Shown piece after piece: positions 14,702 to 57,639 of a DNA stretch of 64,000 nucleotides (the stretch's first letter is position 1; every line of letters begins with the position of its first letter). The notes under the pieces are model-generated. The model did not search any database. It was not told where the DNA came from and saw only the letters and a program-made list of their open reading frames with translations. The translations under genes were made by a program, and so were the position numbers. Source of the DNA: Nannocystis bainbridge (GTDB lineage Bacteria > Myxococcota_A > Polyangia > Nannocystales > Nannocystaceae); assembly GCF_028368995.1 (NCBI RefSeq), contig NZ_JAQNDL010000003.1:2304001-2368000 (forward strand), read 5' to 3'.

Positions 14702-16039
14702 ATGCCCGAAGCGAAGGCAAGCAGCCCCTCCGTCCCGACGCCGCGCCTTCAAGGGGCCATCTCCATCCGTGACGTCGACCCGGACGCGCTCAAGGTCGTC
14801 CGTAAGTTGGTCGCCGGGGGCCACGAGGCCTATCTCGTGGGCGGTTGTGTCCGCGACCTGTTCCTGAAGCGGCGCCCCAAGGACTTCGACGTGGCCACCA
14901 GCGCCACTCCGGAGGCCATCCGCAAGGCGTTCCGCAACTGTCGCATCATCGGCCGCCGGTTCAAGCTCGCGCACGTGTTCTTCGGCCCGAAGATCATCGA
15001 GACGAGCACCTTCCGCACCACGCCGATCACCGCCGAGGACGACCCGCTCATCACTCACGACAATGAGTGGGGCTCGGTCGAGGATGACGCGCGGCGGCGC
15101 GACTTCACCATCAACGGCCTCTTTTACGACACCGACGCCGACGCCATCGTCGACTTCGTCGACGGCCTGGCCGACCTCGAGCGCGGCGTCATCCGCACGA
15201 TCGGCGACCCGCTGCTGCGCTTCCAGGAGGATCCTGTGCGCATGCTGCGGGCGGTCAAGTTCGCCGCGCGGCTCGACTTCACCATCGAGGAGGCCACCTG
15301 GCGGGCCTTGCTCGACACCGTCGGTCACATCGGCAAGTGCTCGCGCGCTCGCGTGCTCGAGGAGATCTACAAGCTCCTGCGCGGCGGCGCGGCGCGGCGC
15401 AGCTTCGAGCTGTTGCTCGAGGCGCGGCTGATGACCGAGCTCATGCCGAGCTACGTCGACCTCTACCGCAAGCTCAGCCCGAACGGCCTCGCCGGTCCGG
15501 CCAGCAAGACCCGCGCGGGCGAGCCCTCGCGCGTCATGTGGAACCTGCTCGAGGCGCTCGACGAGTACACCAGCGCCACCAGCCAGATCGCCAGCAACGG
15601 CGTGCTCCTGGCCGTGCTGTTCGCCCCGCTGCTCGACGAGCAGTGGCACACCGCCAGCCGCCAGGGCCTCGACCGCCTGATCGACGACCTCATGGGCCCG
15701 GTGTGTGTCAGCCTCGGCGTCGCCCGCCGCGACCGCGAGCTCGCGCGGCAGATCCTCATGGCGCACCGGCGCATGGTCGAGTCGCTCAACCGCAAGAAGC
15801 GGCGGCCCTCGCTGGTCCAGCGCCAGTACTTCCACGAGGCGCTCGTGTTCCTCGGCCTCACCGTCAAGGCCCGCGGCGGCGACGGCAGCGAGCTCGGACA
15901 CTGGCAGCGGCTCGCCGCCGTCACCCAGCCGCTGCGCGTCGAGTCGGAGGGCGACTACGACAGCGGCCCGCGGCGCAAGCGGCGGCGGCGGACGCGGCCA
16001 GACGGTCGGCGTCACTCCGCCGAATCGGGCTCGCCGTGA
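14702..16039 (+). CDS. pcnB: Poly(A) polymerase
   Basis: LVGGCVRD, DFDVAT, RRDFTIN, EDPVRMLR; PAP-specific IIGRRFKLAHV; Arg-rich tail. Confidence 0.9.
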   Translation: MPEAKASSPSVPTPRLQGAISIRDVDPDALKVVRKLVAGGHEAYLVGGCVRDLFLKRRPKDFDVATSATPEAIRKAFRNCRIIGRRFKLAHVFFGPKIIETSTFRTTPITAEDDPLITHDNEWGSVEDDARRRDFTINGLFYDTDADAIVDFVDGLADLERGVIRTIGDPLLRFQEDPVRMLRAVKFAARLDFTIEEATWRALLDTVGHIGKCSRARVLEEIYKLLRGGAARRSFELLLEARLMTELMPSYVDLYRKLSPNGLAGPASKTRAGEPSRVMWNLLEALDEYTSATSQIASNGVLLAVLFAPLLDEQWHTASRQGLDRLIDDLMGPVCVSLGVARRDRELARQILMAHRRMVESLNRKKRRPSLVQRQYFHEALVFLGLTVKARGGDGSELGHWQRLAAVTQPLRVESEGDYDSGPRRKRRRRTRPDGRRHSAESGSP

Positions 16040-48432: not shown

Positions 48433-51261
48433 ATGAGCCCACCGATCTCGCGGCGCGGCATCCTGCGCGGAACTCTCGGCGGCGGCACAGTCCTCGTCGG
48501 TGAGAGCTGCGCCCCGAAGATCGTCGGCGAGCGCGCCGAGGCGCCCTCCCTGCCCGCTGTCGGCGATGCCGGGCCCGCCTCCCACGCGCTCGAGTTCACC
48601 GTCAACGGCGCCGCCAGGTCGATCACCGTCGACCCCGAGCGCACCGCCCTCGAGCTCGTGCGGCGCGACCTCGGCCTCACTGGTTGCAAGGAGGCCTGCG
48701 GTCACGGGGCCTGCGGCGCCTGCAGCGTGCTGCTCGACGACGTCCCGGTCGCCGCCTGCCTGCTCCCCGCCGTCGCCCTGCACCGCCGCAAGCTCGTCAC
48801 CGTCGAGGGACTCGCCCCCGCTGGCGAGCTGCACCCGGTGCAGCGCGCCTTCATGGCCGAGGACGCCCTGCAGTGCGGTTTTTGCACCCCCGGCTTCGTC
48901 GTCGCCGCCAGCGCCTTTTACACGCGCTGGCGCGCCGAGCACGGCGACGCCGAGCCCGACCGCGACACCGTCGCCGCCGCGCTGGCCGGCAACCTGTGCC
49001 GCTGCGCCGCCTACGACGGAATCATTCGAGCTGTCCAAAAGGCCAGCTCCGGCGCCTACGAAAAACCACCCGGCCCCGAGCCCGCGCCGCCGCGCTACGA
49101 CGCCCGCGACAAGGTCACCGGCGCCGCCAAGTACACCGTCGACGTCCAGCTCCCCGGTCAGCTCGAGGGCAAGATCTTGCGCTCCCCGCACGCCCACGCG
49201 CGCGTGCGCAAGGTCGACTGGTCGAAGGCCCTCGCGCTGCCCGGCGTGTTCGGGGCGGTCGATCTGCTGCACGGCGGCACCACCCTGCGCTTCGTCGGCC
49301 AGGAGATCGCCGCCATCGCGGCGATCGACGCCCGCACCGCCGAGGCCGCCCTCGCCGCGATCGAGCTCGACCTCGAGGTCCTGCCGCCGCTCGTCGGCAT
49401 GGACGCCGCGCGGGCCCCCGGCGCCGCCCCGGTCTACCCGACCCGCAACACCCGTAAATCGGCCCCCAACGCCAGCGAGGGCCCGCTCCTGCCGCTCGGC
49501 TGGGACGGCAACGTGCGCGGCCCGTTCCAGCTGTTCAGCACCGCCAAGCTCAAGGCCCGCCGCGCCGTCGCCCGCCTGCGCGAGGCCCCGGCCGAGGGCG
49601 TCCTGGTCGAGGGGACCTACAAGACCCAGGTCCAGTGCCACACGGCCCTCGAGCCCCACGCCTGCGTCGCCCGCTGGACCGACGACGACGCCGTCACCGT
49701 CCACCTCTCGACGCAGGGGGTCCACGCCGTGGCCGAGGACATCGCCGAGCGCTGGGGCCTGCGCCGCGACCGCGTCCGCGTGCTCGCGCCGTACGTCGGC
49801 GGCGGCTTCGGGGCCAAGGTCACCCTGCAGCTCGAGTGCGTCGCCGCGGTCGAGCTGGCGCGCATCACCGCGAGGCCGGTGCGGGTGGTGCTCGAGCGGC
49901 GCGAGGAGCTGACGACCGGCGGCCTGCGCCCGGCCCAGGAGATCGAGCTCGCGGTCGCGACCGACCGCGACGGCTACCTGCAGGGCGTCACCGCCCGCGC
50001 CTTCGCCGACGCCGGCTGCAGCGTCGGCTCGACCAGCACCGTGCTCATGCGGCTGATGTACGCCAAGGCGCCCAAGGACATCGCCGACTGGGACGTCGTC
50101 AACCACGCCCCGCCCGGCAAGCCGTTCCGCGGCCCCGGCGGCCCGCCGGTGTTCTGGGCCCTCGAGCAGGCCGTCGACATCGCCGCCGAGCGCCTCGAGC
50201 TCGACCCGATCCTCCTGCGCAAGCGCTTCGACCCCAACCCCGCCCGCAATCACCTCTACGATTGGGCCCTGTCCCTCAAGACATGGCGCGAAAGACAGCC
50301 CGCACAGAGCGACCGCGGCCGGTTCCGCCGCGGCATGGGCCTGGCCGTCGGCGGGTGGTTCTACTTCGTCCAGCCGAGCGCGCGCGTGCAGATCGACGCC
50401 GGCCCCGACGGCATCGTCGCCTCGACGGCCTGCCAGGACATCGGCAACGGCACCCGCACCGTCATCGCCGCCACCGTCGCCGCGGTCCTCGGCCTCGCCC
50501 CCGCCGACATCAAGGTGGAGATCGGCGACTCCTCGCTGGTCCCGGGCCCGACCTCGGGCGGCAGCCGCACCACCGCCTCGCTGGTCCCGGCCGCGACCAT
50601 GGCCGCCGAGCAGCTGCGCGACGAATTGCTGGAGCGCGCCGAGCAGCTCGTCGGCGCCCGCGGCGTCGCCGTACCCGGCGGCGTCCGTCACCCGCGCGGC
50701 GTCGTCACCTGGCAGCAGCTCCTCGCCGGCTCGCCGCCGCTGCGGTTCGTCGGCACGCGCAAGCGCGACAAGGGCGGCTATTTCTTGCCGCCGATGGCCG
50801 ACATCGCCCCCGGCCGCTACGTCGCCGGCTCGCTGCAGATCATCGAGGTCGAGGTCGACACTCGCCTCGGCAAGATCCGCGTGCTGCGCTCGCACACCGG
50901 CATCGCCGCCGGCCACATCGTCGCGCCCGCGCTCGCGCGCAGCCAGGCCCTCGGCGGCGTGATCCAGGGCATCGGCTACGCCCTCTACGAAGAGCGCCGC
51001 CTCGACCCGAACACCGGCGCCCTCCTCACCGGCGGCCTCGAGGATTACCGGATCCCCGGCATCGGCGACATCGGCGAGCTCGACGTCCACTTCGTCGAGG
51101 ACGGCTACGAGCGCGTCAACGGCCGCAGCGTCGGCCTCGCCGAGCTCGTCACCCTCGCCCCCGCCGCCGCCATCGGCAACGCCGTCGCGCACGCCACCGG
51201 CTTCCGCCCGCGCGAGCTGCCGCTACGCCCCGACCGCGTCCTGCAAGGACTCCGCGGATGA
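48433..51261 (+). CDS. Xanthine dehydrogenase-family molybdo-hydroxylase, fused 2Fe-2S plus Mo-binding subunit, Tat signal
   Basis: SRRGIL; C-GHGAC-GAC, QCGFCTPG, NLCRC; GGGFGAK, FRGPG, SGGSR, GLAE. Confidence 0.93.
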   Translation: MSPPISRRGILRGTLGGGTVLVGESCAPKIVGERAEAPSLPAVGDAGPASHALEFTVNGAARSITVDPERTALELVRRDLGLTGCKEACGHGACGACSVLLDDVPVAACLLPAVALHRRKLVTVEGLAPAGELHPVQRAFMAEDALQCGFCTPGFVVAASAFYTRWRAEHGDAEPDRDTVAAALAGNLCRCAAYDGIIRAVQKASSGAYEKPPGPEPAPPRYDARDKVTGAAKYTVDVQLPGQLEGKILRSPHAHARVRKVDWSKALALPGVFGAVDLLHGGTTLRFVGQEIAAIAAIDARTAEAALAAIELDLEVLPPLVGMDAARAPGAAPVYPTRNTRKSAPNASEGPLLPLGWDGNVRGPFQLFSTAKLKARRAVARLREAPAEGVLVEGTYKTQVQCHTALEPHACVARWTDDDAVTVHLSTQGVHAVAEDIAERWGLRRDRVRVLAPYVGGGFGAKVTLQLECVAAVELARITARPVRVVLERREELTTGGLRPAQEIELAVATDRDGYLQGVTARAFADAGCSVGSTSTVLMRLMYAKAPKDIADWDVVNHAPPGKPFRGPGGPPVFWALEQAVDIAAERLELDPILLRKRFDPNPARNHLYDWALSLKTWRERQPAQSDRGRFRRGMGLAVGGWFYFVQPSARVQIDAGPDGIVASTACQDIGNGTRTVIAATVAAVLGLAPADIKVEIGDSSLVPGPTSGGSRTTASLVPAATMAAEQLRDELLERAEQLVGARGVAVPGGVRHPRGVVTWQQLLAGSPPLRFVGTRKRDKGGYFLPPMADIAPGRYVAGSLQIIEVEVDTRLGKIRVLRSHTGIAAGHIVAPALARSQALGGVIQGIGYALYEERRLDPNTGALLTGGLEDYRIPGIGDIGELDVHFVEDGYERVNGRSVGLAELVTLAPAAAIGNAVAHATGFRPRELPLRPDRVLQGLRG

Positions 51262-51455
51262 CCCTCTCCTCACGAGCCCGAAGCCCGCGCATGACCTCTC
51301 TCGTCGCCGCAGCTCGGCCCGGGCGCATCGCCGAACAGCCCTCGCGCATGACCTCTCCCGTCGCCGCTGCTCGCCCCGGGCCCATCGCCGAACAGCCCCC
51401 GCGCATGACCTCTCTCGCCACCGCACTTCGCCGCTCCGCACGAGGTGCCCGATGA
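51258..51455 (+). repeat. 57-bp tandem repeats forming a 65-aa ORF that overlaps both neighbours by ATGA
   Basis: ATGACCTCTC at 51291, 51348, 51405; in-frame ATG 51258 to TGA 51455. Confidence 0.7.
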
Positions 51456-52465
51456 CCGCGCTCGAGCTCCCGACCACCCTCGACGCCGCGCTCGGCCGCC
51501 CCGGTGAGCTGCGCGCCGGCGGCACCGACCTCACCGAGCGGCGCCGGCTCGACCTGTCCCGGGGGACAGTCATCGACCTGCGCGACGTCCCCGGCCTCGA
51601 CGCCATCACCTGGCGCGAAGGACAGCTGCACCTCGGCGCCCTCGTCACCCTCGCCGCCGTCGCCGCGCACCCCGACGTGCGCGCCCGCTACCCGGCCGTG
51701 GCTGCCACCGCGGCCGCCGTCGCGACCCCGCAGATCCGCGCCCGCGCGACTGTCGGCGGCAACCTGCTGCAGCACGTGCGCTGCTGGTACTACCGCCGCC
51801 CCGGCGCCGACTGCCTCAAGAGCGGCGGCAGCGGCTGCCCGGCCCGCAGCGGCGACCACCTGTTCCACGCCTGCTTCGACCTCGGCCCGTGCGTCGCGCC
51901 GCACCCGTCGTCGCTGGCGACCGCGCTGCTGGCCTACGAGGTCCGCGTCGAGGTCGCCGGCGACCGCGAGCACACCCTCGCCAGCCTCTACGGCGACGGC
52001 TCCGATGCGCGCCGGCACCACATGCTGCCGCCCGGCGCGCTGCTCACCGGCGTGCTGCTCGGCCCGCCCCTCGCCGGCGAGCAGGCGGCCTACGTGCGCG
52101 CGACCAGCCGGGCCCGCGCGGAGTGGCCGCTGGTCGAGGTGGTGGTGCGCCTGGCGGTGGCCGCCGGCCGCATCGACACCGCCCGCGTCACCGTCGGCGG
52201 GGTGGCCAACCTCCCGCTCCGCCTCGCCGCGGTCGAGGCCCTGCTGGTCGGCAAACCCGCGCACGAGGCGACCCTGGCCGCCGCCGCCGCGGTCGCAGCC
52301 GAGGGCGCGAAGCCGCTGACCCACACGGCCTACAAGCTCGACCTCCTGCGCGGCGCGGTCCTCGACGCGCTCGAGCGCGCGCTCGCCCACACGCCGACCG
52401 CCGCGACGCCCGCCAAGACCCCCGAGCCATCGCCCGATAAACCCGCGACCGCCGAGCCGACCTGA
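51452..52465 (+). CDS. FAD-binding subunit (PaoB/YagS-like, with Cys insert)
   Basis: AGGTDL, ATPQIRARATVGGNL, RCWYYR..C.K.GG.GC...C. Confidence 0.92.
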   Translation: MTALELPTTLDAALGRPGELRAGGTDLTERRRLDLSRGTVIDLRDVPGLDAITWREGQLHLGALVTLAAVAAHPDVRARYPAVAATAAAVATPQIRARATVGGNLLQHVRCWYYRRPGADCLKSGGSGCPARSGDHLFHACFDLGPCVAPHPSSLATALLAYEVRVEVAGDREHTLASLYGDGSDARRHHMLPPGALLTGVLLGPPLAGEQAAYVRATSRARAEWPLVEVVVRLAVAAGRIDTARVTVGGVANLPLRLAAVEALLVGKPAHEATLAAAAAVAAEGAKPLTHTAYKLDLLRGAVLDALERALAHTPTAATPAKTPEPSPDKPATAEPT

Positions 52466-52480
52466 CCTCGAGGACAGCCC

Positions 52481-52699
52481 ATGCAACTGTGCCGCCACCT
52501 GCGCTGGAAAGGCCACTCGCACGACGCGACCGAGCTGGCCGAATTCATGCTGACGTTCGCCCGCAACCAGGTCCCCTACTCGTGCCTCCACACGTGCCAA
52601 CCATGGGGCCCCGACGACGAGCTCGCCGCCCCGGAGGCCTGCAACGACAGCCGCCCGTGCTACAAGCCGTCCCCGCTGGTCACCCTCCGCCTGAGCTGA
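52481..52699 (+). CDS. Small Cys/His-rich protein
   Basis: GAGG RBS; CRHLRWK...YSCLHTCQPWGPD...C...RPCY. Confidence 0.7.
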   Translation: MQLCRHLRWKGHSHDATELAEFMLTFARNQVPYSCLHTCQPWGPDDELAAPEACNDSRPCYKPSPLVTLRLS

Positions 52700-52726
52700 G
52701 ACGCCGCTCAAAAAAACAAATGTAGA

Positions 52727-52812
52727 TGCGCAGGGAGGGACTCGAACCCTCACGCCCCTCGCGGGACCTGGCCACCTCAAGGCCAGCCGTCTACCAATTC
52801 CGTCACCTGCGC
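52727..52812 (-). tRNA. tRNA-Leu(GAG), no encoded CCA
   Basis: GCGCAGG/CCTGCGC-A73; D-loop GAATTGGTAGA; TGGCC-TTGAGGT-GGCCA; long variable arm; GAGGG-TTCGAGT-CCCTC; A10.G25 mismatch. Confidence 0.85.
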
Positions 52813-52842
52813 GCGCTGCCGCTGCTCGTCGTGATTCCCTGA

Positions 52843-52928
52843 TGCGCAAGAAGGGACTCGAACCCTCACGCCCCACCCGGGGCCCGGCGTTCTGAGCGCC
52901 GTACGTCTGCCAATTCCGCCACTTGCGC
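52843..52928 (-). tRNA. tRNA-Leu(CAG), A37, no CCA
   Basis: GCGCAAG/CTTGCGC-A; CGGCG-CTCAGAA-CGCCG; long variable arm. Confidence 0.85.
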
Positions 52929-52952
52929 CTGTCGCTCCCCAGTTCAAAAGAA

Positions 52953-53038
52953 TGCGCAGGGAGGGACTCGAACCCTCACGCCCCATCCGGAGCCTGGCGT
53001 TCTGAGCGCCAGCCGTCTACCCATTCCGTCACCTGCGC
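52953..53038 (-). tRNA. tRNA-Leu(CAG), A37, no CCA
   Basis: GCGCAGG/CCTGCGC-A; TGGCG-CTCAGAA-CGCCA; A10.G25 mismatch. Confidence 0.8.
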
Positions 53039-53052
53039 GTCTCTCAAAAAAG

Positions 53053-53135
53053 TCCGCGGGGCAGGGATCGAACCTGCCCGCGCCGAAGCGCCGTCGGTTT
53101 ACAGCCGACTGCCCCACCATTGAGGCGTCCCGCGG
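53053..53135 (-). tRNA. tRNA-Tyr(GTA)-like with C1:G72 and A8
   Basis: CCGCGGG/CCCGCGG-A; GTCGG-CTGTAAA-CCGAC; variable arm GCGC-TTCG-GCGC; GCAGG-TTCGATC-CCTGC. Confidence 0.8.
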
Positions 53136-53172
53136 AAAATTCCCCCGTCCTCTTCTCCTCATCACAAAAGCA

Positions 53173-53259
53173 TGCGCAGGGAGGGCCTCGAACCCTCACG
53201 CCCCTCGCGGAGCCCGACGTTTTGAATGTCGGTTGTCTACCGAATTCCAGCACCTGCGC
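53173..53259 (-). tRNA. tRNA-Leu(CAA), atypical
   Basis: GCGCAGG/CCTGCGC-A; CGACA-TTCAAAA-CGTCG (A31.C39 mismatch); T-loop TTCGAGG; C10.A25. Confidence 0.75.
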
Positions 53260-53299
53260 GAATCACTCGTCGACCTCTTCCTTTCTTAAAAAGATACGA

Positions 53300-53382
53300 T
53301 GCACAGGGAGGGACTCGAACCCTCACGCCCGACGGGCCTGGCGCTCTCGAGGCCAGTTGTCTACCAGTTCCAGCACCTGCGC
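53300..53382 (-). tRNA. Leu-bodied tRNA-like gene, nominal anticodon GAG, aberrant loop (possible pseudo-tRNA)
   Basis: GCGCAGG/CCTGTGC-A; TGGCC-TCGAGAG-CGCCA (C31.C39 mismatch, C33). Confidence 0.65.
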
Positions 53383-53433
53383 GTATTCGTGTCACTCGTA
53401 CCCCTCAGGCCGTCCGTGGCCTGATATGGGGGA

Positions 53434-53508
53434 TCGGGGCAGCGGGATTCGAACCCACGACCTTCTGTGCCCAAGACAGACGCTCTGACCAGGCTGAGCT
53501 ACGCCCCG
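53434..53508 (-). tRNA. tRNA-Pro(TGG), no CCA
   Basis: CGGGGCG/TGCCCCG-A; GCTC-AGCCTGGTCA-GAGC; TCTGT-CTTGGGC-ACAGA; GTGGG-TTCGAAT-CCCGC. Confidence 0.92.
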
Positions 53509-53540
53509 AAAGCGTAAATGACGAGACCCCACGCGAGAGA

Positions 53541-53553
53541 CACTGTCACAGTG
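53541..53553. promoter_or_regulatory. Perfect dyad CACTGT-C-ACAGTG upstream of the tRNA array (candidate operator)
   Basis: 32 bp upstream of the tRNA-Pro 5' end. Confidence 0.4.
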
Positions 53554-54082
53554 CCATCGAACATTCGCCCGTCGGGCCGATCCGACGATCGAACCTTCAC
53601 GTGCGCAAGCCGACGCGGACTCGCGGAGGTGCAACGATTCGGATGTCTCCCCGCGCTCGTTGCAGCGCTCGCCTGCACTCCGACCGGAGCGCCCCGTTTA
53701 CCGGGGTAGATACGGCAGCAGGCGTAGATACGGCCGCGGGTCCAACAGCTCGGGGAGCAGCAAGAGCCCCGCCATAAGCGGCTGGCCCTGGAGCTTCGTC
53801 CCGATGATGTGCTGATGGTTCGCCACGACGTTCACCCTGACTCGGTCCGGGGTATGTACAGCAGGCCGATTCGCCGGTCAAGTCCCTCGCACGATTTTTC
53901 CGCGGGCCGCCGGCAGTGCCCACATTCGCCGCGCGCCCGCGTCACGCTCCGCGAATCCGCGCACCACACTCCTGCCATTGCCGCGCCGCGCCGCTCGTCC
54001 CCCGCCCGGCGGACCCCCGCGGCCGGCGCCGCTCGCCGCCGCCCTCGCGTCCGCGCGCCGCTCGTGTATCCTGGCGCCCGCC

Positions 54083-54730
54083 GTGTCCCCGACCTCGCCG
54101 ACCTCCTCGGTCCTGCGCCCACGCCTGCGCGGCGTCGCCGACATCTACGTCGCCTCCGTCGCGGTCCCGGCAGTGGTCGCCCTGGTCCTCTATGCCCGCG
54201 ACGGCGCCGCCACCCTCTCGGCCCTGGTCTACGGCACGTCCCTGGTGGTCCTGCTGGTCGGCAGCGCGGTCTACCACCTGCCCGGCTGGCCGCTGCGCAC
54301 CGCCCTGTGGCTGCGCAAGCTCGACCACGCCAACATCTACCTGCTGATCGCCGGCACCGCGACCCCGCTGGCCCTGGCCCTCGACAGCTCCGCCAGCGTG
54401 TGGCTGCTGTCGGCCATGTGGCTCGCCGCCGGCCTGGGGGTGGTCAAGACCTTCGCCTGGCCCCGAGCCCCGCGCAAGCTCAGCGCCGCGCTCTACGTGC
54501 TCATGGGCTGCTTCACGCTGCCCACCGCGCCAGCCCTCCGCAGCGCCGCCGACGAGGTGTTCCTGCTGTTCGCCACGGGCGGGTTGCTCTATTTCTGCGG
54601 CGCGGTGATCTACGCCCTCCGCTGGCCCAACCCGGTCCCGCTGGTGTTCGGCTACCACGAGCTCTTTCACGTGTTCGTCTTCAGCGCCGCCCTGGTCCAT
54701 TACCTGGCGATCTGGGTCCTCGTGACCTGA
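54083..54730 (+). CDS. Hemolysin III / PAQR family membrane protein
   Basis: RPRLRG, SAVYH, LRKLDHANIYLLIAGT.TP, FGYHELFHVFV. Confidence 0.92.
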   Translation: MSPTSPTSSVLRPRLRGVADIYVASVAVPAVVALVLYARDGAATLSALVYGTSLVVLLVGSAVYHLPGWPLRTALWLRKLDHANIYLLIAGTATPLALALDSSASVWLLSAMWLAAGLGVVKTFAWPRAPRKLSAALYVLMGCFTLPTAPALRSAADEVFLLFATGGLLYFCGAVIYALRWPNPVPLVFGYHELFHVFVFSAALVHYLAIWVLVT

Positions 54731-54876
54731 AGCGATCTGCGCCCACCGCTGGGCCCGCTGGCCCACACGCCGCGGCGCTCGCACCAATTCGCGCGCCTCA
54801 TGGTCCGCCGGACCCGGGTCTGTGATCGATCGAGCAGGCAGTATTCTCCCCAAAGCCTGAACAGTCTCTACGCCGC

Positions 54877-57639
54877 TTGACTACGGTGGAGGATCGGGCC
54901 CTCTTAGCAAAGCGCCTCGTGTCGAAGTCGCATCCAGCCCCGCATGCGCCCGATGGCAGCGGTCCCGGCCCCGTCGGCGGCCAGGGCAGGGCGGCCGCGT
55001 CGACCCGCAAGACCCCCGTCTCTCCGACCTCGCCGGACCCGGTCACGCTCGAGCCCGGCCGCGAGATCGGTCGCTTCACCGTGCTCTCGTACCTCGGCGC
55101 CGGCGCCATGGGCATCGTCTACGCCGCCTACGACCCCGAGCTCGACCGCAAGGTCGCGCTCAAGGCCCTGCGCCCGCAGGGCCGCCCCGAGAGCCACGGC
55201 CGCGTGCGCCTCCACGACGAGGCCCAGGCGATGGCCAAGGTCTCGCACCCCAACGTCGCCGTCGTCCACGAGGTCGGCCTCCACGACGACGGCATCTTCA
55301 TCGCCATGGAGTTCGTCCACGGCGAGACGCTCCAGGCCTGGCTCGAGAAGCAGCCGCGCCCGTGGCCCGAGGTGCTCGACGCGTTCATCCAGGCCGGCCG
55401 CGGCCTCGCTGCGGCCCACGCCGCCGGCCTGGTCCACCGCGACTTCAAGCCCAACAACGCCATGATCGGCGACGACGGCCGGGTCCGCGTCCTCGACTTC
55501 GGCCTGTCGTGCACCCCTGAAAAGGCCCGCCGCGAGATCGTCGGTACGCCGGCCTACATGCCCCCGGAGCAGTTCCTCGGCCTCCCGGTCGGCCCCGCCT
55601 CCGACCAGTTCAGCTTCTGCGCCTCGCTGTACCAGGGCCTGTTCGGCCAGCTGCCGTTCCCCGGCGACAGCGCCGAGGAGCTGCGCGTCACCATCACCGG
55701 CGGCCAGGTCCGCGCGCCGCCACGGCACGTCCGCGTGCCCTCGTGGCTCAGCTCCGCGATCCTGCGCGGGCTCCGACAGAACCCCGAGGACAGGTTCGCC
55801 AGCATGGAGGAGCTGCTGCGCAACCTCGACCACCACCGCAGCCGCGGCCGTCGCACGCTGCTCGGGGCGGTCGCCGCGGCGGCGCTCCTCGGTCTCGGCG
55901 GCGGCTACCTCGGCGCGCGCCCGCTGGCGGTCGAAACCTGCAGCGACGGCGCCGCGCAGATCGATCCGGTGTGGCACCGCGACGCGCAGGCGGCGATCGA
56001 GCGCACCTTCGCCAAGTTGCCGCCCGCGTTCGCCACCGAGTTCTGGCCGCAGGTCCGCGCCAAGCTGGGCGCCTGGACCCTCGACTGGAAGACCCATTAC
56101 CGGGCCGCCTGCGAGGCCCGCGAGCGCCACGAGTTCTCCGAGGAGCTGGCGCTGCGCAGCTCGGCCTGCTTCGAGCGGGCCCGCGCCGCGCTGGCCTCGG
56201 CCGTCGTCGTCCTGCGCAAGGCCGACGCCGGCGTGGCCTTGCACGCGCTCGAGGTCGCGACCTCTTTGCCCGACCCCGCCGAGTGTCGCAGCAGCGCCAG
56301 CCTCGTCGCGCACACCCGGGCCTCGCGCGACATCGGCACCACCCTGCGTCGCCGCAAGGTCATGGCCGAGCTCGAGGACGTCAAGATCCACGCCCGGGCC
56401 GGACGGATCCGGACCTCCCGCCAGCTCGCCGAGTGGACCCTGCGCGAGGCCCACGCGCTCGGCGACCGGGCCACCCTGGCCGAGGCGCTGCTCCTGCGCG
56501 GCCGCCTCGACATCGAGATCGACCCGACCCGCGCCGAACCATTCCTCACTCGCGCCTATCTCGTGGCCCTCGGCGCCGGCGAGGACAACCGCGTGGTCGA
56601 GGCGCTCGCGCTGCGCCTCTACGCCCGCAGCCACGCCCCGCACGGCCTGCCGCGCGCCTTCGAGGACCTCGAGGTCGTCACCGCCTTGTTGCCCCGGATC
56701 GGCAACCCGCCGAGCCTGCAGGCGCTCGCCTTCAACAACGCCGGCTCGCTGTACCTCACCGCTGGCGACGGCGCCAAGGGCGAGCCGTACCTGCGCGAGT
56801 CCTTGCGCCTGCGCCGGGCCGCCAGCGAGGACGACGTCGAGGTCGCCAAGACGCTCGGCAACCTGGCCCTGCTGGCGCGAGATCCCGCCCGCACCCGCGA
56901 GCTCGTCGGCGAGTCGCTGACGATCCTCGAGAACAACCTCGGCCTCGCCCACCCCGAGGCCATGGCGGTGCGGATCCTCGCCGGCGCCCTCGCCGAAGAT
57001 CCCCAGGAGGCCGTGCAGCTGCTCGAGCGCGGCTGCGACGCCCTCGACTTGTACCGCCCCGACGATTCGCGCGCCCGCGCCGAATGTCTACAGCACCTGG
57101 CCGCGCACGCGCGCGACGCCGGCGAGCCGGCGATCGCCGACGACGCGATCGTGCGCGCGCGCGCGCTGATCGAGCGAATGGCGGATACGGAGCCCGATTC
57201 ACCGTTCCGCTTCGACAACGCCCTGATCCGCGGCTACGCCGGCCTGGTCGACGGCGCCCACGCTGACGCCCTGATCTACCTCGGGCGCACGCTCGACGAG
57301 CTGCGCGGCGGCGAATGGTGGCAGCGGCGAAAGGTCGCCGAGATCGAGCTGTGCATCGGCCTGCACCTGCTCGCCGACGGCGACATCCCGGGGGCCCGGC
57401 GCGCGCTCGCGGCCAGCGTCGCCATCTTCGAGCAGGTCGCGGCCAAGGCCCACGACAACGTCCTGCCGCGGACCCTCGCCGGCGCCCGGCTGGCCTACGC
57501 CGACGCCCTGCGCGCCAGCTTCGACCCGGAGGCCGCCGCGCACGAGCTCGCTGTCGCCGAATCATGGTACCGCGAATCCGCGGGCGATTTCGCATGGCGC
57601 CTGCCGACAATCGCCCAACGCCGTCAGCGACTGGAGTAA
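54877..57639 (+). CDS. Transmembrane Ser/Thr protein kinase with C-terminal TPR-like domain
   Basis: LGAGAMG, VALK, HRDFKPNN, DFGL, GTPAYMPPE, SDQFSFC; TM; NNAG/TLGNLA TPRs; start uncertain. Confidence 0.93.
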   Translation: MTTVEDRALLAKRLVSKSHPAPHAPDGSGPGPVGGQGRAAASTRKTPVSPTSPDPVTLEPGREIGRFTVLSYLGAGAMGIVYAAYDPELDRKVALKALRPQGRPESHGRVRLHDEAQAMAKVSHPNVAVVHEVGLHDDGIFIAMEFVHGETLQAWLEKQPRPWPEVLDAFIQAGRGLAAAHAAGLVHRDFKPNNAMIGDDGRVRVLDFGLSCTPEKARREIVGTPAYMPPEQFLGLPVGPASDQFSFCASLYQGLFGQLPFPGDSAEELRVTITGGQVRAPPRHVRVPSWLSSAILRGLRQNPEDRFASMEELLRNLDHHRSRGRRTLLGAVAAAALLGLGGGYLGARPLAVETCSDGAAQIDPVWHRDAQAAIERTFAKLPPAFATEFWPQVRAKLGAWTLDWKTHYRAACEARERHEFSEELALRSSACFERARAALASAVVVLRKADAGVALHALEVATSLPDPAECRSSASLVAHTRASRDIGTTLRRRKVMAELEDVKIHARAGRIRTSRQLAEWTLREAHALGDRATLAEALLLRGRLDIEIDPTRAEPFLTRAYLVALGAGEDNRVVEALALRLYARSHAPHGLPRAFEDLEVVTALLPRIGNPPSLQALAFNNAGSLYLTAGDGAKGEPYLRESLRLRRAASEDDVEVAKTLGNLALLARDPARTRELVGESLTILENNLGLAHPEAMAVRILAGALAEDPQEAVQLLERGCDALDLYRPDDSRARAECLQHLAAHARDAGEPAIADDAIVRARALIERMADTEPDSPFRFDNALIRGYAGLVDGAHADALIYLGRTLDELRGGEWWQRRKVAEIELCIGLHLLADGDIPGARRALAASVAIFEQVAAKAHDNVLPRTLAGARLAYADALRASFDPEAAAHELAVAESWYRESAGDFAWRLPTIAQRRQRLE

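Follow-up and report, generated by a model that had tools for sequence, protein, structure and literature searches.

A seven-gene tRNA array in Nannocystis bainbridge lies downstream of a short open reading frame (ORF) that is rich in codons for the very amino acids carried by the tRNAs of the array, and comparative sequence analysis leads us to think it probable that leader ORFs with cognate codons of this kind place tRNA operons under ribosome-mediated, isotype-specific control. The array sits in a 64,000-nt stretch (contig NZ_JAQNDL010000003.1, positions 2,304,001 to 2,368,000), referred to here as the window, of a source genome of 11.05 Mb with 71.5% G+C, held in five contigs and estimated to be 90.5% complete. 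Five congeners hold the same array locus, and 'the six genomes' below are the source genome and these five. Applied to tRNA genes, leader-peptide control would be a new form of such control.

We analysed the leader in an alignment of the interval from tRNA-Pro, the first gene of the array, to the haemolysin-III gene in the six genomes, in which conservation of the leader region is far above that of the array spacers. On the minus strand, a promoter-like site at 53853-53881 (−35 hexamer at 53881-53876, 17-nt spacer, −10 hexamer at 53858-53853) keeps its hexamers and their spacing in all six genomes and would act as the promoter. The leader ORF (53698-53826, minus strand) starts with GTG 26 nt after the −10 hexamer, with a purine-rich stretch before it, and runs for 42 codons to a TAA stop at 53700-53698; it has 42-44 codons across the six genomes, with every length change in frame. 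Leu, Pro and Tyr make up 20 of the 42 codons and 17 of the last 24, the C-terminal half consisting of almost nothing else, and they are exactly the three isotypes encoded 188 nt downstream. Pro-Tyr-Leu occurs twice, each time written with the less used Tyr codon (10% of Tyr codons) and the least used of all Leu codons (0.3%). We discarded rare codons as a sign of leader translation, as codons ending in A or T, at about 35%, are no more than the non-coding expectation. In the 5′ half of the leader ORF, conservation extends to third codon positions, and base pairing is predicted. A six-frame search found the peptide in 6 of 73 family genomes, only those holding the array, and a single relative, of 45 residues, turned up among 5.8 billion database proteins.

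Downstream of the ORF, RNAalifold predicts two conserved structures on the minus strand. A GC-rich hairpin (53675-53692, alignment columns 162-180) begins 6 nt past the leader stop and is present in all six genomes, with one pair changed on both sides. Beyond it lies a structured 3′ part of the leader (53509-53630) with a long-range stem, whose arms at 53630-53620 and 53537-53526 (columns 225-235 with 321-332) show G-C/G-U changes, and with a T-rich stretch (53525-53509) that abuts tRNA-Pro; a role for this part in control is putative, and the pattern scan calls no terminator. No Rfam leader family, T-box riboswitches included, matched at the gathering score in 50000-56000 or at E values up to 10 in 53400-54000. 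The predicted anatomy is attenuator-like, with cognate codons concentrated before a stop codon that abuts a conserved hairpin.

The same layout of promoter-like site, short ORF, 36-300 nt of structured RNA and first tRNA is found elsewhere in the family. The leader of the Ser x3 array has 26 codons, including 8-9 Ser with a run of 3-5, in all six genomes, and Ser residues persist from species to species even where the codon has moved from one of the two unrelated Ser codon families to the other; leaders of Ser x4-Tyr arrays in three other genera have 8-9 Ser and 3-5 Tyr. Before the Glu-Glu-Asn unit, again in all six genomes, 7-8 of 28-30 residues are Glu or Asn; the promoter of this leader is called by the scanning tool, and its last codons make up the 5′ arm of a hairpin of 10-11 bp, the formation of which depends in constraint folding on the modelled ribosome position. 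Two smaller congeners have a Pro-Arg-Pro-Pro-Leu-Leu array with a leader rich in Leu, Pro and Arg and devoid of Tyr, and one of the two also has a Thr-Val-Ile-Met-His-Phe array in whose leader 21 of 31 residues belong to these six isotypes. The leader of a 19-25-gene Pro/Arg/Ser/Leu/Tyr array in another genus is homologous to the window leader and contains Tyr, and an N-terminal leader motif is shared between genera. Cys arrays have leaders of 24-28 codons with 1-3 Cys near the end. The 33-codon leader of a 23-gene array lacks Leu, Ser, Phe and Tyr, which are also absent from the array, and 6 of its 33 residues (Ala, His, Cys) are of non-array isotypes; here a hairpin with a T run, called as a terminator, lies about 40 nt before the first tRNA.

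Apart from their richness in the isotypes of their own arrays, the leader peptides of different arrays are unrelated. Substitutions between species exchange one array isotype for another, and within each leader family a hairpin that abuts or overlaps the stop codon is conserved. A cognate leader ORF appears to recur at every well-sampled supernumerary array of the family; the Ala pair has no enriched upstream ORF (P = 0.06).

We scored leader composition as the best ORF of 15-70 codons within 450 nt upstream. Random sequence served as the null of a binomial test, and P values were Bonferroni-corrected for the number of ORFs tested. Because this null is too lenient towards some amino acids in DNA so rich in G+C, we added an empirical null of 12,000 random 450-nt windows of the source genome, which was used for the leaders of other genomes too. 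Bonferroni P values were 5 × 10⁻⁸ to 2 × 10⁻⁴ for the window array and its orthologues, 2 × 10⁻⁵ to 5 × 10⁻⁴ for Glu-Glu-Asn, 5 × 10⁻⁵ to 3 × 10⁻⁴ for Ser-Tyr, 5 × 10⁻⁴ to 4 × 10⁻³ for Ser, 0.01 to 0.25 for the 23-gene array and 0.07 to 1 for Cys. Among the 12,000 random windows, the observed value was reached by none for Leu/Pro/Tyr and none for Thr/Val/Ile/Met/His/Phe, by 11 for Glu/Asn, 35 for Leu/Pro/Arg, 105 for Leu/Pro/Arg/Ser/Tyr, 148 for Ser/Tyr, 404 for the 23-gene set, 614 for Cys and 937 for Ser. Across the 47 tRNA transcription units of the genome, formed after 12 of 102 ARAGORN calls that were over-long or very GC-rich and had no Rfam match had been set aside, the top scorers were the window array, Glu-Glu-Asn and the Ser array. 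The only other high scorer, the Glu-Lys unit, was a false positive, its ORF forming the C-terminal end of a long ORF of ordinary kind. All three array families with a Tyr tRNA have Tyr codons in their leaders, and none of the six families without one does.

Several observations weigh against this interpretation. The Ser, Cys and 23-gene leaders are not individually significant against the empirical null, and in one genome a Cys leader is out of frame. ORFs were picked by enrichment, which biases in favour of the idea the match of Tyr codons with Tyr tRNAs, the isotype counts of the nine leader families (33 of 36 array isotypes found in the last 24 codons of their own leader, compared with 54 of 144 other isotypes) and the P value of 9 × 10⁻¹¹ obtained by combining six leader families, treated as independent; the picked ORFs share stop codon and frame with promoter-proximal conserved ORFs found independently. 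Genomes of kin are not independent, and the data amount to about six independent leader families. In the window, the −10 hexamer is weak, an E. coli-type pattern scan of 52400-54000 calls no promoter and no terminator, and a separate promoter may lie in the variable 100 nt before tRNA-Pro. Constraint folding of the window and Glu-Glu-Asn leaders gives no one consistent polarity or scheme. Finally, leaders hold codons that the anticodons of their own arrays cannot read, namely CTA in the window and TCA in Ser leaders; because of such codons, the quantity sensed would be the decoding or charging of an isotype as a whole, rather than of the array products only.

In the mechanism we propose, transcription would start at a promoter about 340 nt upstream and run through the translated 42-codon Leu/Pro/Tyr leader ORF, where the speed of the ribosome would report the current decoding capacity for Leu, Pro and Tyr codons. 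The position of the ribosome at the end of the ORF, where the conserved hairpin starts, would set the fold of the 190-nt leader RNA and, through this fold, the extent to which transcription or processing gets as far as the tRNA genes. The family as a whole would then have such a system, with an isotype-matched leader for each supernumerary array and the window array as one of its units. Translation of the ORF, a transcript shared by leader and tRNAs, the coupling step and its polarity are all steps that we infer from the sequences. As to polarity, we lean only slightly towards stalling giving more tRNA, by analogy with attenuators of the his/leu/trp type, over the opposite and less favoured wiring, an amino-acid-specific shut-off of tRNA synthesis. 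The first-pass annotation of this stretch had proposed a stress-inducible set; the cognate leader ORF does suggest regulated rather than constitutive expression, in a form other than the one proposed there.

Bacterial tRNA genes are generally thought to be under global control, by growth rate and the stringent response. If the proposed control exists, translation status would feed back onto tRNA supply isotype by isotype, a new use of ribosome-mediated attenuation, which would explain how a second, structurally deviant tRNA complement has long been kept without upsetting the tRNA pool. Tentatively, and as a reading less likely than not, we extend the idea to isotype-by-isotype tRNA homeostasis, in which a spare array would be switched on when ribosomes slow on its own codons in the leader ORF. 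The structural deviations of the spare tRNAs (C1-G72/A8 in Tyr, the 10:25 mismatch and C33 in Leu) could enable them to survive whatever had depleted the housekeeping copies, for example tRNA-cleaving toxins that myxobacteria exchange or that phage trigger; this would amount to a demand-driven backup translation system encoded wholly in cis. Short modular cis-elements of this kind could serve as sensors of the decoding of specific codons. The idea is directly testable, as cultured Nannocystis strains carry the same locus.

Upstream regions of these arrays share a further feature. One 6-mer and its near-complement each occur within 450 nt upstream of 4 of 5 leader-bearing arrays, compared with 3 of 42 other tRNA units, and a related 6-mer is about 40-fold above genome expectation. 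In three leaders (those of the window array, the Cys array and one L007 array) an A-rich block containing the 6-mer stands just before the −35 hexamer; the 6-mer and A-rich block may be a shared protein-binding or UP-like element. At the Cys x3 array (L020, contig C1) a 10-nt unit is repeated about 6 times in tandem some 95-165 nt upstream, in the source genome only, with Cys codons in three frames.

The array itself comprises exactly seven tRNA genes, the only ones that ARAGORN calls in the window, all on the minus strand within 52727-53509, so that seven genes in one orientation occupy 783 bp (0.78 kb). Their order is as the first-pass annotation had read it. The operon opens with tRNA-Pro(TGG) (53434-53508; Rfam 65 bits), which in the tRNA proper differs by 0-1 base from its counterparts in the five congeners. 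Then come a tRNA-Leu body with a GAG anticodon, C33 and a C.C mismatch at 31:39 (53300-53382; 30.5 bits), tRNA-Leu(CAA) (53173-53259; below the Rfam gathering score, conserved in all six genomes) and a tRNA-Tyr(GTA) of non-canonical lineage, with C1-G72, A8, C9 and a long variable arm (53052-53135; below the gathering score). Three Leu genes complete the array: Leu(CAG) (52953-53038; 47.5 bits), a Leu(CAG) variant distinguished in the alignment by a G10.U25 pair and A26 (52843-52928; 50.8 bits), and the final Leu(GAG) (52727-52812; 43.8 bits), which has the longest T run in its trailer. At the gathering threshold of 29 bits for RF00005, five of the seven pass, with 30.5-65 bits; Tyr and Leu(CAA) fall under it, and ARAGORN still folds all seven as cloverleaves.

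The array belongs to a spare set, as the annotation had supposed in calling it accessory and proposing a check for canonical genes elsewhere. Outside the arrays the genome has canonical Tyr, Pro(TGG) and five Leu genes (AAG, TAG, CAG, TAA and CAA), and the non-array tRNA genes cover all 20 isotypes. Housekeeping genes of the same isotypes score 50-69 bits to RF00005, compared with 30-65 bits in the array, where two of seven are below threshold. The housekeeping Tyr gene has its usual place, a Thr-Tyr-Gly-Thr cluster; of 41 relatives searched, 34 have a single copy of the canonical Tyr gene, holders of the deviant Tyr among them. One point qualifies the accessory reading: Leu(GAG) is found only in this array, and the only other reader of CUY codons is a conserved Leu(AAG) gene. 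Leu accounts for 10.6% of all codons, with CTG and CTC making up 52.7% and 42.4% of Leu codons; Tyr accounts for 2.1% of all codons. Further tRNA clusters in the genome are the 23-gene array 200 kb off, Cys x3, Ser x3, Ala x2 and Glu-Glu-Asn, and the supernumerary clusters, taken together, nearly amount to a second tRNA complement.

The Leu(AAG) gene is itself of note. It encodes CCA, lies at 3087156-3087240 of contig C1 and is identical in the five congeners (L013-L017), with one compensatory anticodon-stem change in the source genome; Leu(AAG) is also found within arrays of other genera (L009, L010). Because CTC makes up 42% of Leu codons, inosine at position 34 of Leu(AAG) is implied for this myxobacterial family. 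Bacterial tRNA-Leu(IAG) made through TadA has been reported in Lactobacillales and Streptococcus, both Firmicutes (PMC13249217 and PMC11472039). As there, the CUY reader in Nannocystis would be a Leu(AAG) needing inosine for CTC; here the phylum is different and a G34 Leu(GAG) coexists with it, in the array only.

The five Leu bodies of the array are near-identical, with A73 and a canonical Leu D-loop. The acceptor and T-arm that they had been described as sharing are indeed common to them, although the T-arm is the same as that of the housekeeping Leu(AAG) and hence not specific to the array. A broken 10:25 pair and a C26/G44 pair had been noted in four bodies; both the non-standard 10:25 and C26/G44 are there in four of the five, and among the 34 distinct sequences of the six-genome Leu set 10:25 is non-standard in 29 and 26:44 is C-G in 30. 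Across the same 34 sequences, 95% of 878 stem cells are paired, compared with 39-56% with slid partners, and 8 pairs are changed on both sides. Because stem pairing is kept and two-sided changes occur across six genomes, we read the Leu deviations as maintained and not as decay. Of the six genomes, ARAGORN calls the second gene in five: four share its odd anticodon loop, with C33 and the C.C loop-closing mismatch, and one has a canonical loop.

Two claims about the 3′ ends of the array genes fared differently. None of the seven encodes CCA, as had been observed; this is not distinctive, and because 46 of 52 single tRNA genes also lack CCA, its absence is a trait of the genome. The U-rich trailers stand out as described: five of seven trailers contain a T run, and the T share of the first 10 trailer bases is 0.49 in the array compared with 0.17 for the 52 single tRNA genes, a count that left out 3 tRNAs of the 23-gene array missed by the T-loop rule. 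The base after the discriminator is T in 6 of 7 array genes and C in 40 of 52 single genes, and the array spacers are T-rich with lower G+C. The genome has an RNase Z-like gene at 289.8 bits (cut-off 292.95) and two nucleotidyltransferase genes of the CCA-adding type. A separate 3′-processing route for the array tRNAs is possible. One of the two genes of the CCA-adding type (PolyA_pol family) lies inside the window, at about 14828-15196 on the plus strand (contig C2, 2318828-2319196), some 38 kb from the array.

The most deviant member of the array, overlooked by the first-pass annotation, is the Tyr gene. Bacterial tRNA-Tyr has G1-C72, U8, A73, a GUA anticodon and a long variable arm. The array gene has the A73, the GUA anticodon and the long arm, with C1-G72 and A8 in place of the G1-C72 and U8 of the housekeeping Tyr. 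C1, C2, A8 and C9 show no variation in any of the 26 sequences, taken from 8 genomes of three genera, and the acceptor stem carries compensatory changes at pairs 3:70 and 4:69. An archaeal/eukaryal-type 1:72 pair beside a single bacterial-type tyrosyl-tRNA synthetase poses a separate question of tRNA identity. We considered a second tyrosyl-tRNA synthetase serving the C1-G72 tRNA and found only one tyrS in the genome, plus two trpS; the latter are full-length paralogues (contig C4, 418660-419346, and contig C3, 1021253-1022098) scoring 254.6 and 246.2 bits to the trpS model. A phage source was likewise rejected: a degenerate pattern of the deviant Tyr matched 2 viral contigs, neither at a tRNA. 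The same pattern hit 86 genome loci, 7 of them inside a tRNA, in records named as Nannocystis, Paraliomyxa, Nannocystaceae, Polyangia or Myxococcota, and the other 79 are chance matches in GC-rich DNA. Some Ser tRNAs of Ser arrays (contig C3, 526095-526398, locus L021; and locus L011) also lack U8, having C8 or A8, and U8 loss seems to recur among the long-variable-arm tRNAs of the spare set.

Within the genus the array is inherited in place. Near full-length DNA matches at 76-78% identity occur in the five congeners, in all of which the synteny check proposed at the outset puts the array between the same flanking genes: on one side the FAD subunit of a xanthine-dehydrogenase-like enzyme and a 78-residue ORF, on the other a haemolysin-III-family gene. 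Congener arrays have 9-13 genes, namely Pro, the odd Leu, Leu(CAA) and then repeated Tyr-Leu units with up to 5 Tyr genes, and the copy in the source genome, with its single Tyr, is the shortest. Local duplication with anticodon change, as originally suggested, is borne out by these repeated units at one locus and by anticodon switches in orthologous bodies, one orthologous Leu combining a CAG-type anticodon stem with a GAG anticodon. In alignment, the array head Pro-Leu-Leu matches Pro(GGG)-Leu(GAG)-Leu(CAG), part of longer mixed arrays in the smaller congeners, and the deviant Tyr lineage is common to at least three genera. Among the sequencing runs listed in a search, none of RNA contained the locus. 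In two environmental contigs of 705 and 1848 nt, from related soil organisms and probably DNA, the order Leu-Pro-leader persists and some 85-100 nt ahead of tRNA-Pro have been replaced. The best explanation of these sequences would be a vertically inherited supernumerary operon in which Tyr-Leu units are gained and lost in tandem and anticodons switch. As had been stated, mobile genes are absent nearby: none of the 10 flanking ORFs scanned has a mobile-element domain (integrase, phage), nor do 10 ORFs by the 23-gene array have integrase or phage domains, and we rejected a mobile origin. In one congener array the last gene (locus L006, 1168-1252, minus strand) puts a TCG (Arg) anticodon on a Leu body and has a pyrimidine at position 37; it is either a copy in decay or a case in which identity and anticodon do not match.

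Against ribosome-mediated control stand four other explanations. The array could be a constitutive supplementary operon that adds dosage for abundant codons, with the composition of the leader incidental and its conservation due to a promoter, protein-binding or RNA element. Its anticodons do mirror the heavy Leu codons CTG and CTC, and Leu(GAG) has no gene elsewhere; the third-position conservation and predicted pairing in the 5′ half of the ORF are as expected of a constraint on RNA or DNA, a binding site could consist of the direct repeat that the two rare-codon triplets make up, and the Ser, Cys and mixed-set enrichments are weak alone. Dosage is nevertheless an unlikely account, as it leaves unexplained the nine arrays with upstream ORFs enriched in their own isotypes, the Tyr codons that track Tyr tRNA genes and the in-frame length changes, and Tyr, at 2.1% of codons, is a poor candidate for up to 5 genes in congeners. 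We regard as quite unlikely that the small ORFs encode functional peptides co-transcribed with the tRNAs, possibly with a feed-forward supply of tRNA for their own product, rich in Leu, Pro and Tyr, or for proteins like it. Bacteria do make transcripts that combine mRNA and tRNA, as with tufB downstream of four tRNA genes, and the N-terminal leader motif is shared across genera; yet the peptides of different arrays have nothing but isotype richness in common, their substitutions swap array isotypes instead of conserving residues, and 5.8 billion proteins contain only 1 relative.

The other two explanations turn on the tRNA bodies. The idea put forward with the first-pass annotation does not involve the upstream ORF and has the tRNAs either resist toxins as a backup or decoy set or supply non-ribosomal enzymes with aminoacyl-tRNA. 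It draws on conserved deviations (the 10:25 mismatch, C26-G44, the C33 Leu and the C1-G72/A8 Tyr) that could blunt recognition by tRNA-cleaving toxins, and there are known cases of phage tRNAs whose altered loops let them escape anticodon nucleases. Among the 10 neighbours, however, there is no gene for a nuclease, cyclodipeptide synthase, Fem-type enzyme or L/F-transferase, and the T-stem, which sets EF-Tu binding, equals that of housekeeping Leu(AAG), which makes this very unlikely as the whole account. Rfam scores under the housekeeping range, with two of seven genes below threshold, T-rich spacers of lower G+C and a copy number that varies between species would all suit decaying, unexpressed remnants of a horizontally acquired long array. 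Compensatory change that keeps the stems while the spacers diverge, a syntenic locus in six genomes and a deviant Tyr lineage in at least three genera make decay extremely improbable.

Leader-peptide attenuators control amino-acid operons and pheST, with the trp, his, leu, thr, ilv and pheA leaders as examples. They have also been modelled (PMC1183508). Like them, the arrays described here have a short promoter-proximal ORF, which at the window array has a plausible start and is present in all six genomes, cognate regulatory codons near the end of the ORF, structured RNA before the first regulated gene and a hairpin beginning at the stop codon. Unlike them, the regulated genes are tRNAs and not enzymes or synthetases; a single leader would in several cases watch over two to six or more amino acids; stop codon and first gene lie about 100-300 nt apart, a long distance that only in the Glu-Glu-Asn unit is as short as 36-60 nt; and a canonical terminator is called in only one family, that of the 23-gene array, and not in the window. 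A full-text literature search, with most subscription journals outside its reach, found no description of a leader-peptide-controlled tRNA operon, and we know of no precedent for one.

An inducible long tRNA array is described in PMC8421152, the L-array (trn operon) of Anabaena PCC 7120, which is controlled by repeats at its promoter; that paper mentions no leader, attenuation or terminator. Common to both cases are a divergent supernumerary set apart from the housekeeping genes and the idea of an inducible subset answering impaired translation. L-arrays are long (up to 43 genes), rarely periodic and patchily distributed through horizontal transfer, according to the same paper. The Anabaena array spreads in this way, whereas the window array is short, periodic and syntenic in six genomes, with no flanking mobile-element domains, and so is not an L-array. 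It fits better with the A-arrays of the same source (same-orientation, periodic, built by accretion and inherited vertically): it has dense same-orientation genes and, in congeners, Tyr-Leu repeats in arrays of 9-13 genes at the syntenic locus, a periodicity suggesting growth by slippage or recombination. By definition, a tRNA array unit holds 20 tRNA genes or more at a density no lower than 2 per kb (PMC4758250); the window array has the density and, with 7 genes, not the number. Unlike A-arrays and tRNA array units, its members are structurally non-canonical. The main texts of PMC8421152 and PMC4758250 do not mention myxobacteria.

The source genome also has an array resembling an L-array, the 23-gene array about 200 kb away (contig C2, 2556665-2559233; L019), which has both the number and the density of a tRNA array unit, 13 isotypes and T-rich spacers of low G+C. 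The five congeners retain it too, at 200-300 kb from their copies of the window array.

The 78-residue ORF beside the window array (52466-52699, plus strand) has no Pfam match, converges on the array and lies 27 nt from its 3′ end. In the five congeners it is 92-96% identical, compared with 78-91% for the adjoining enzyme subunit.

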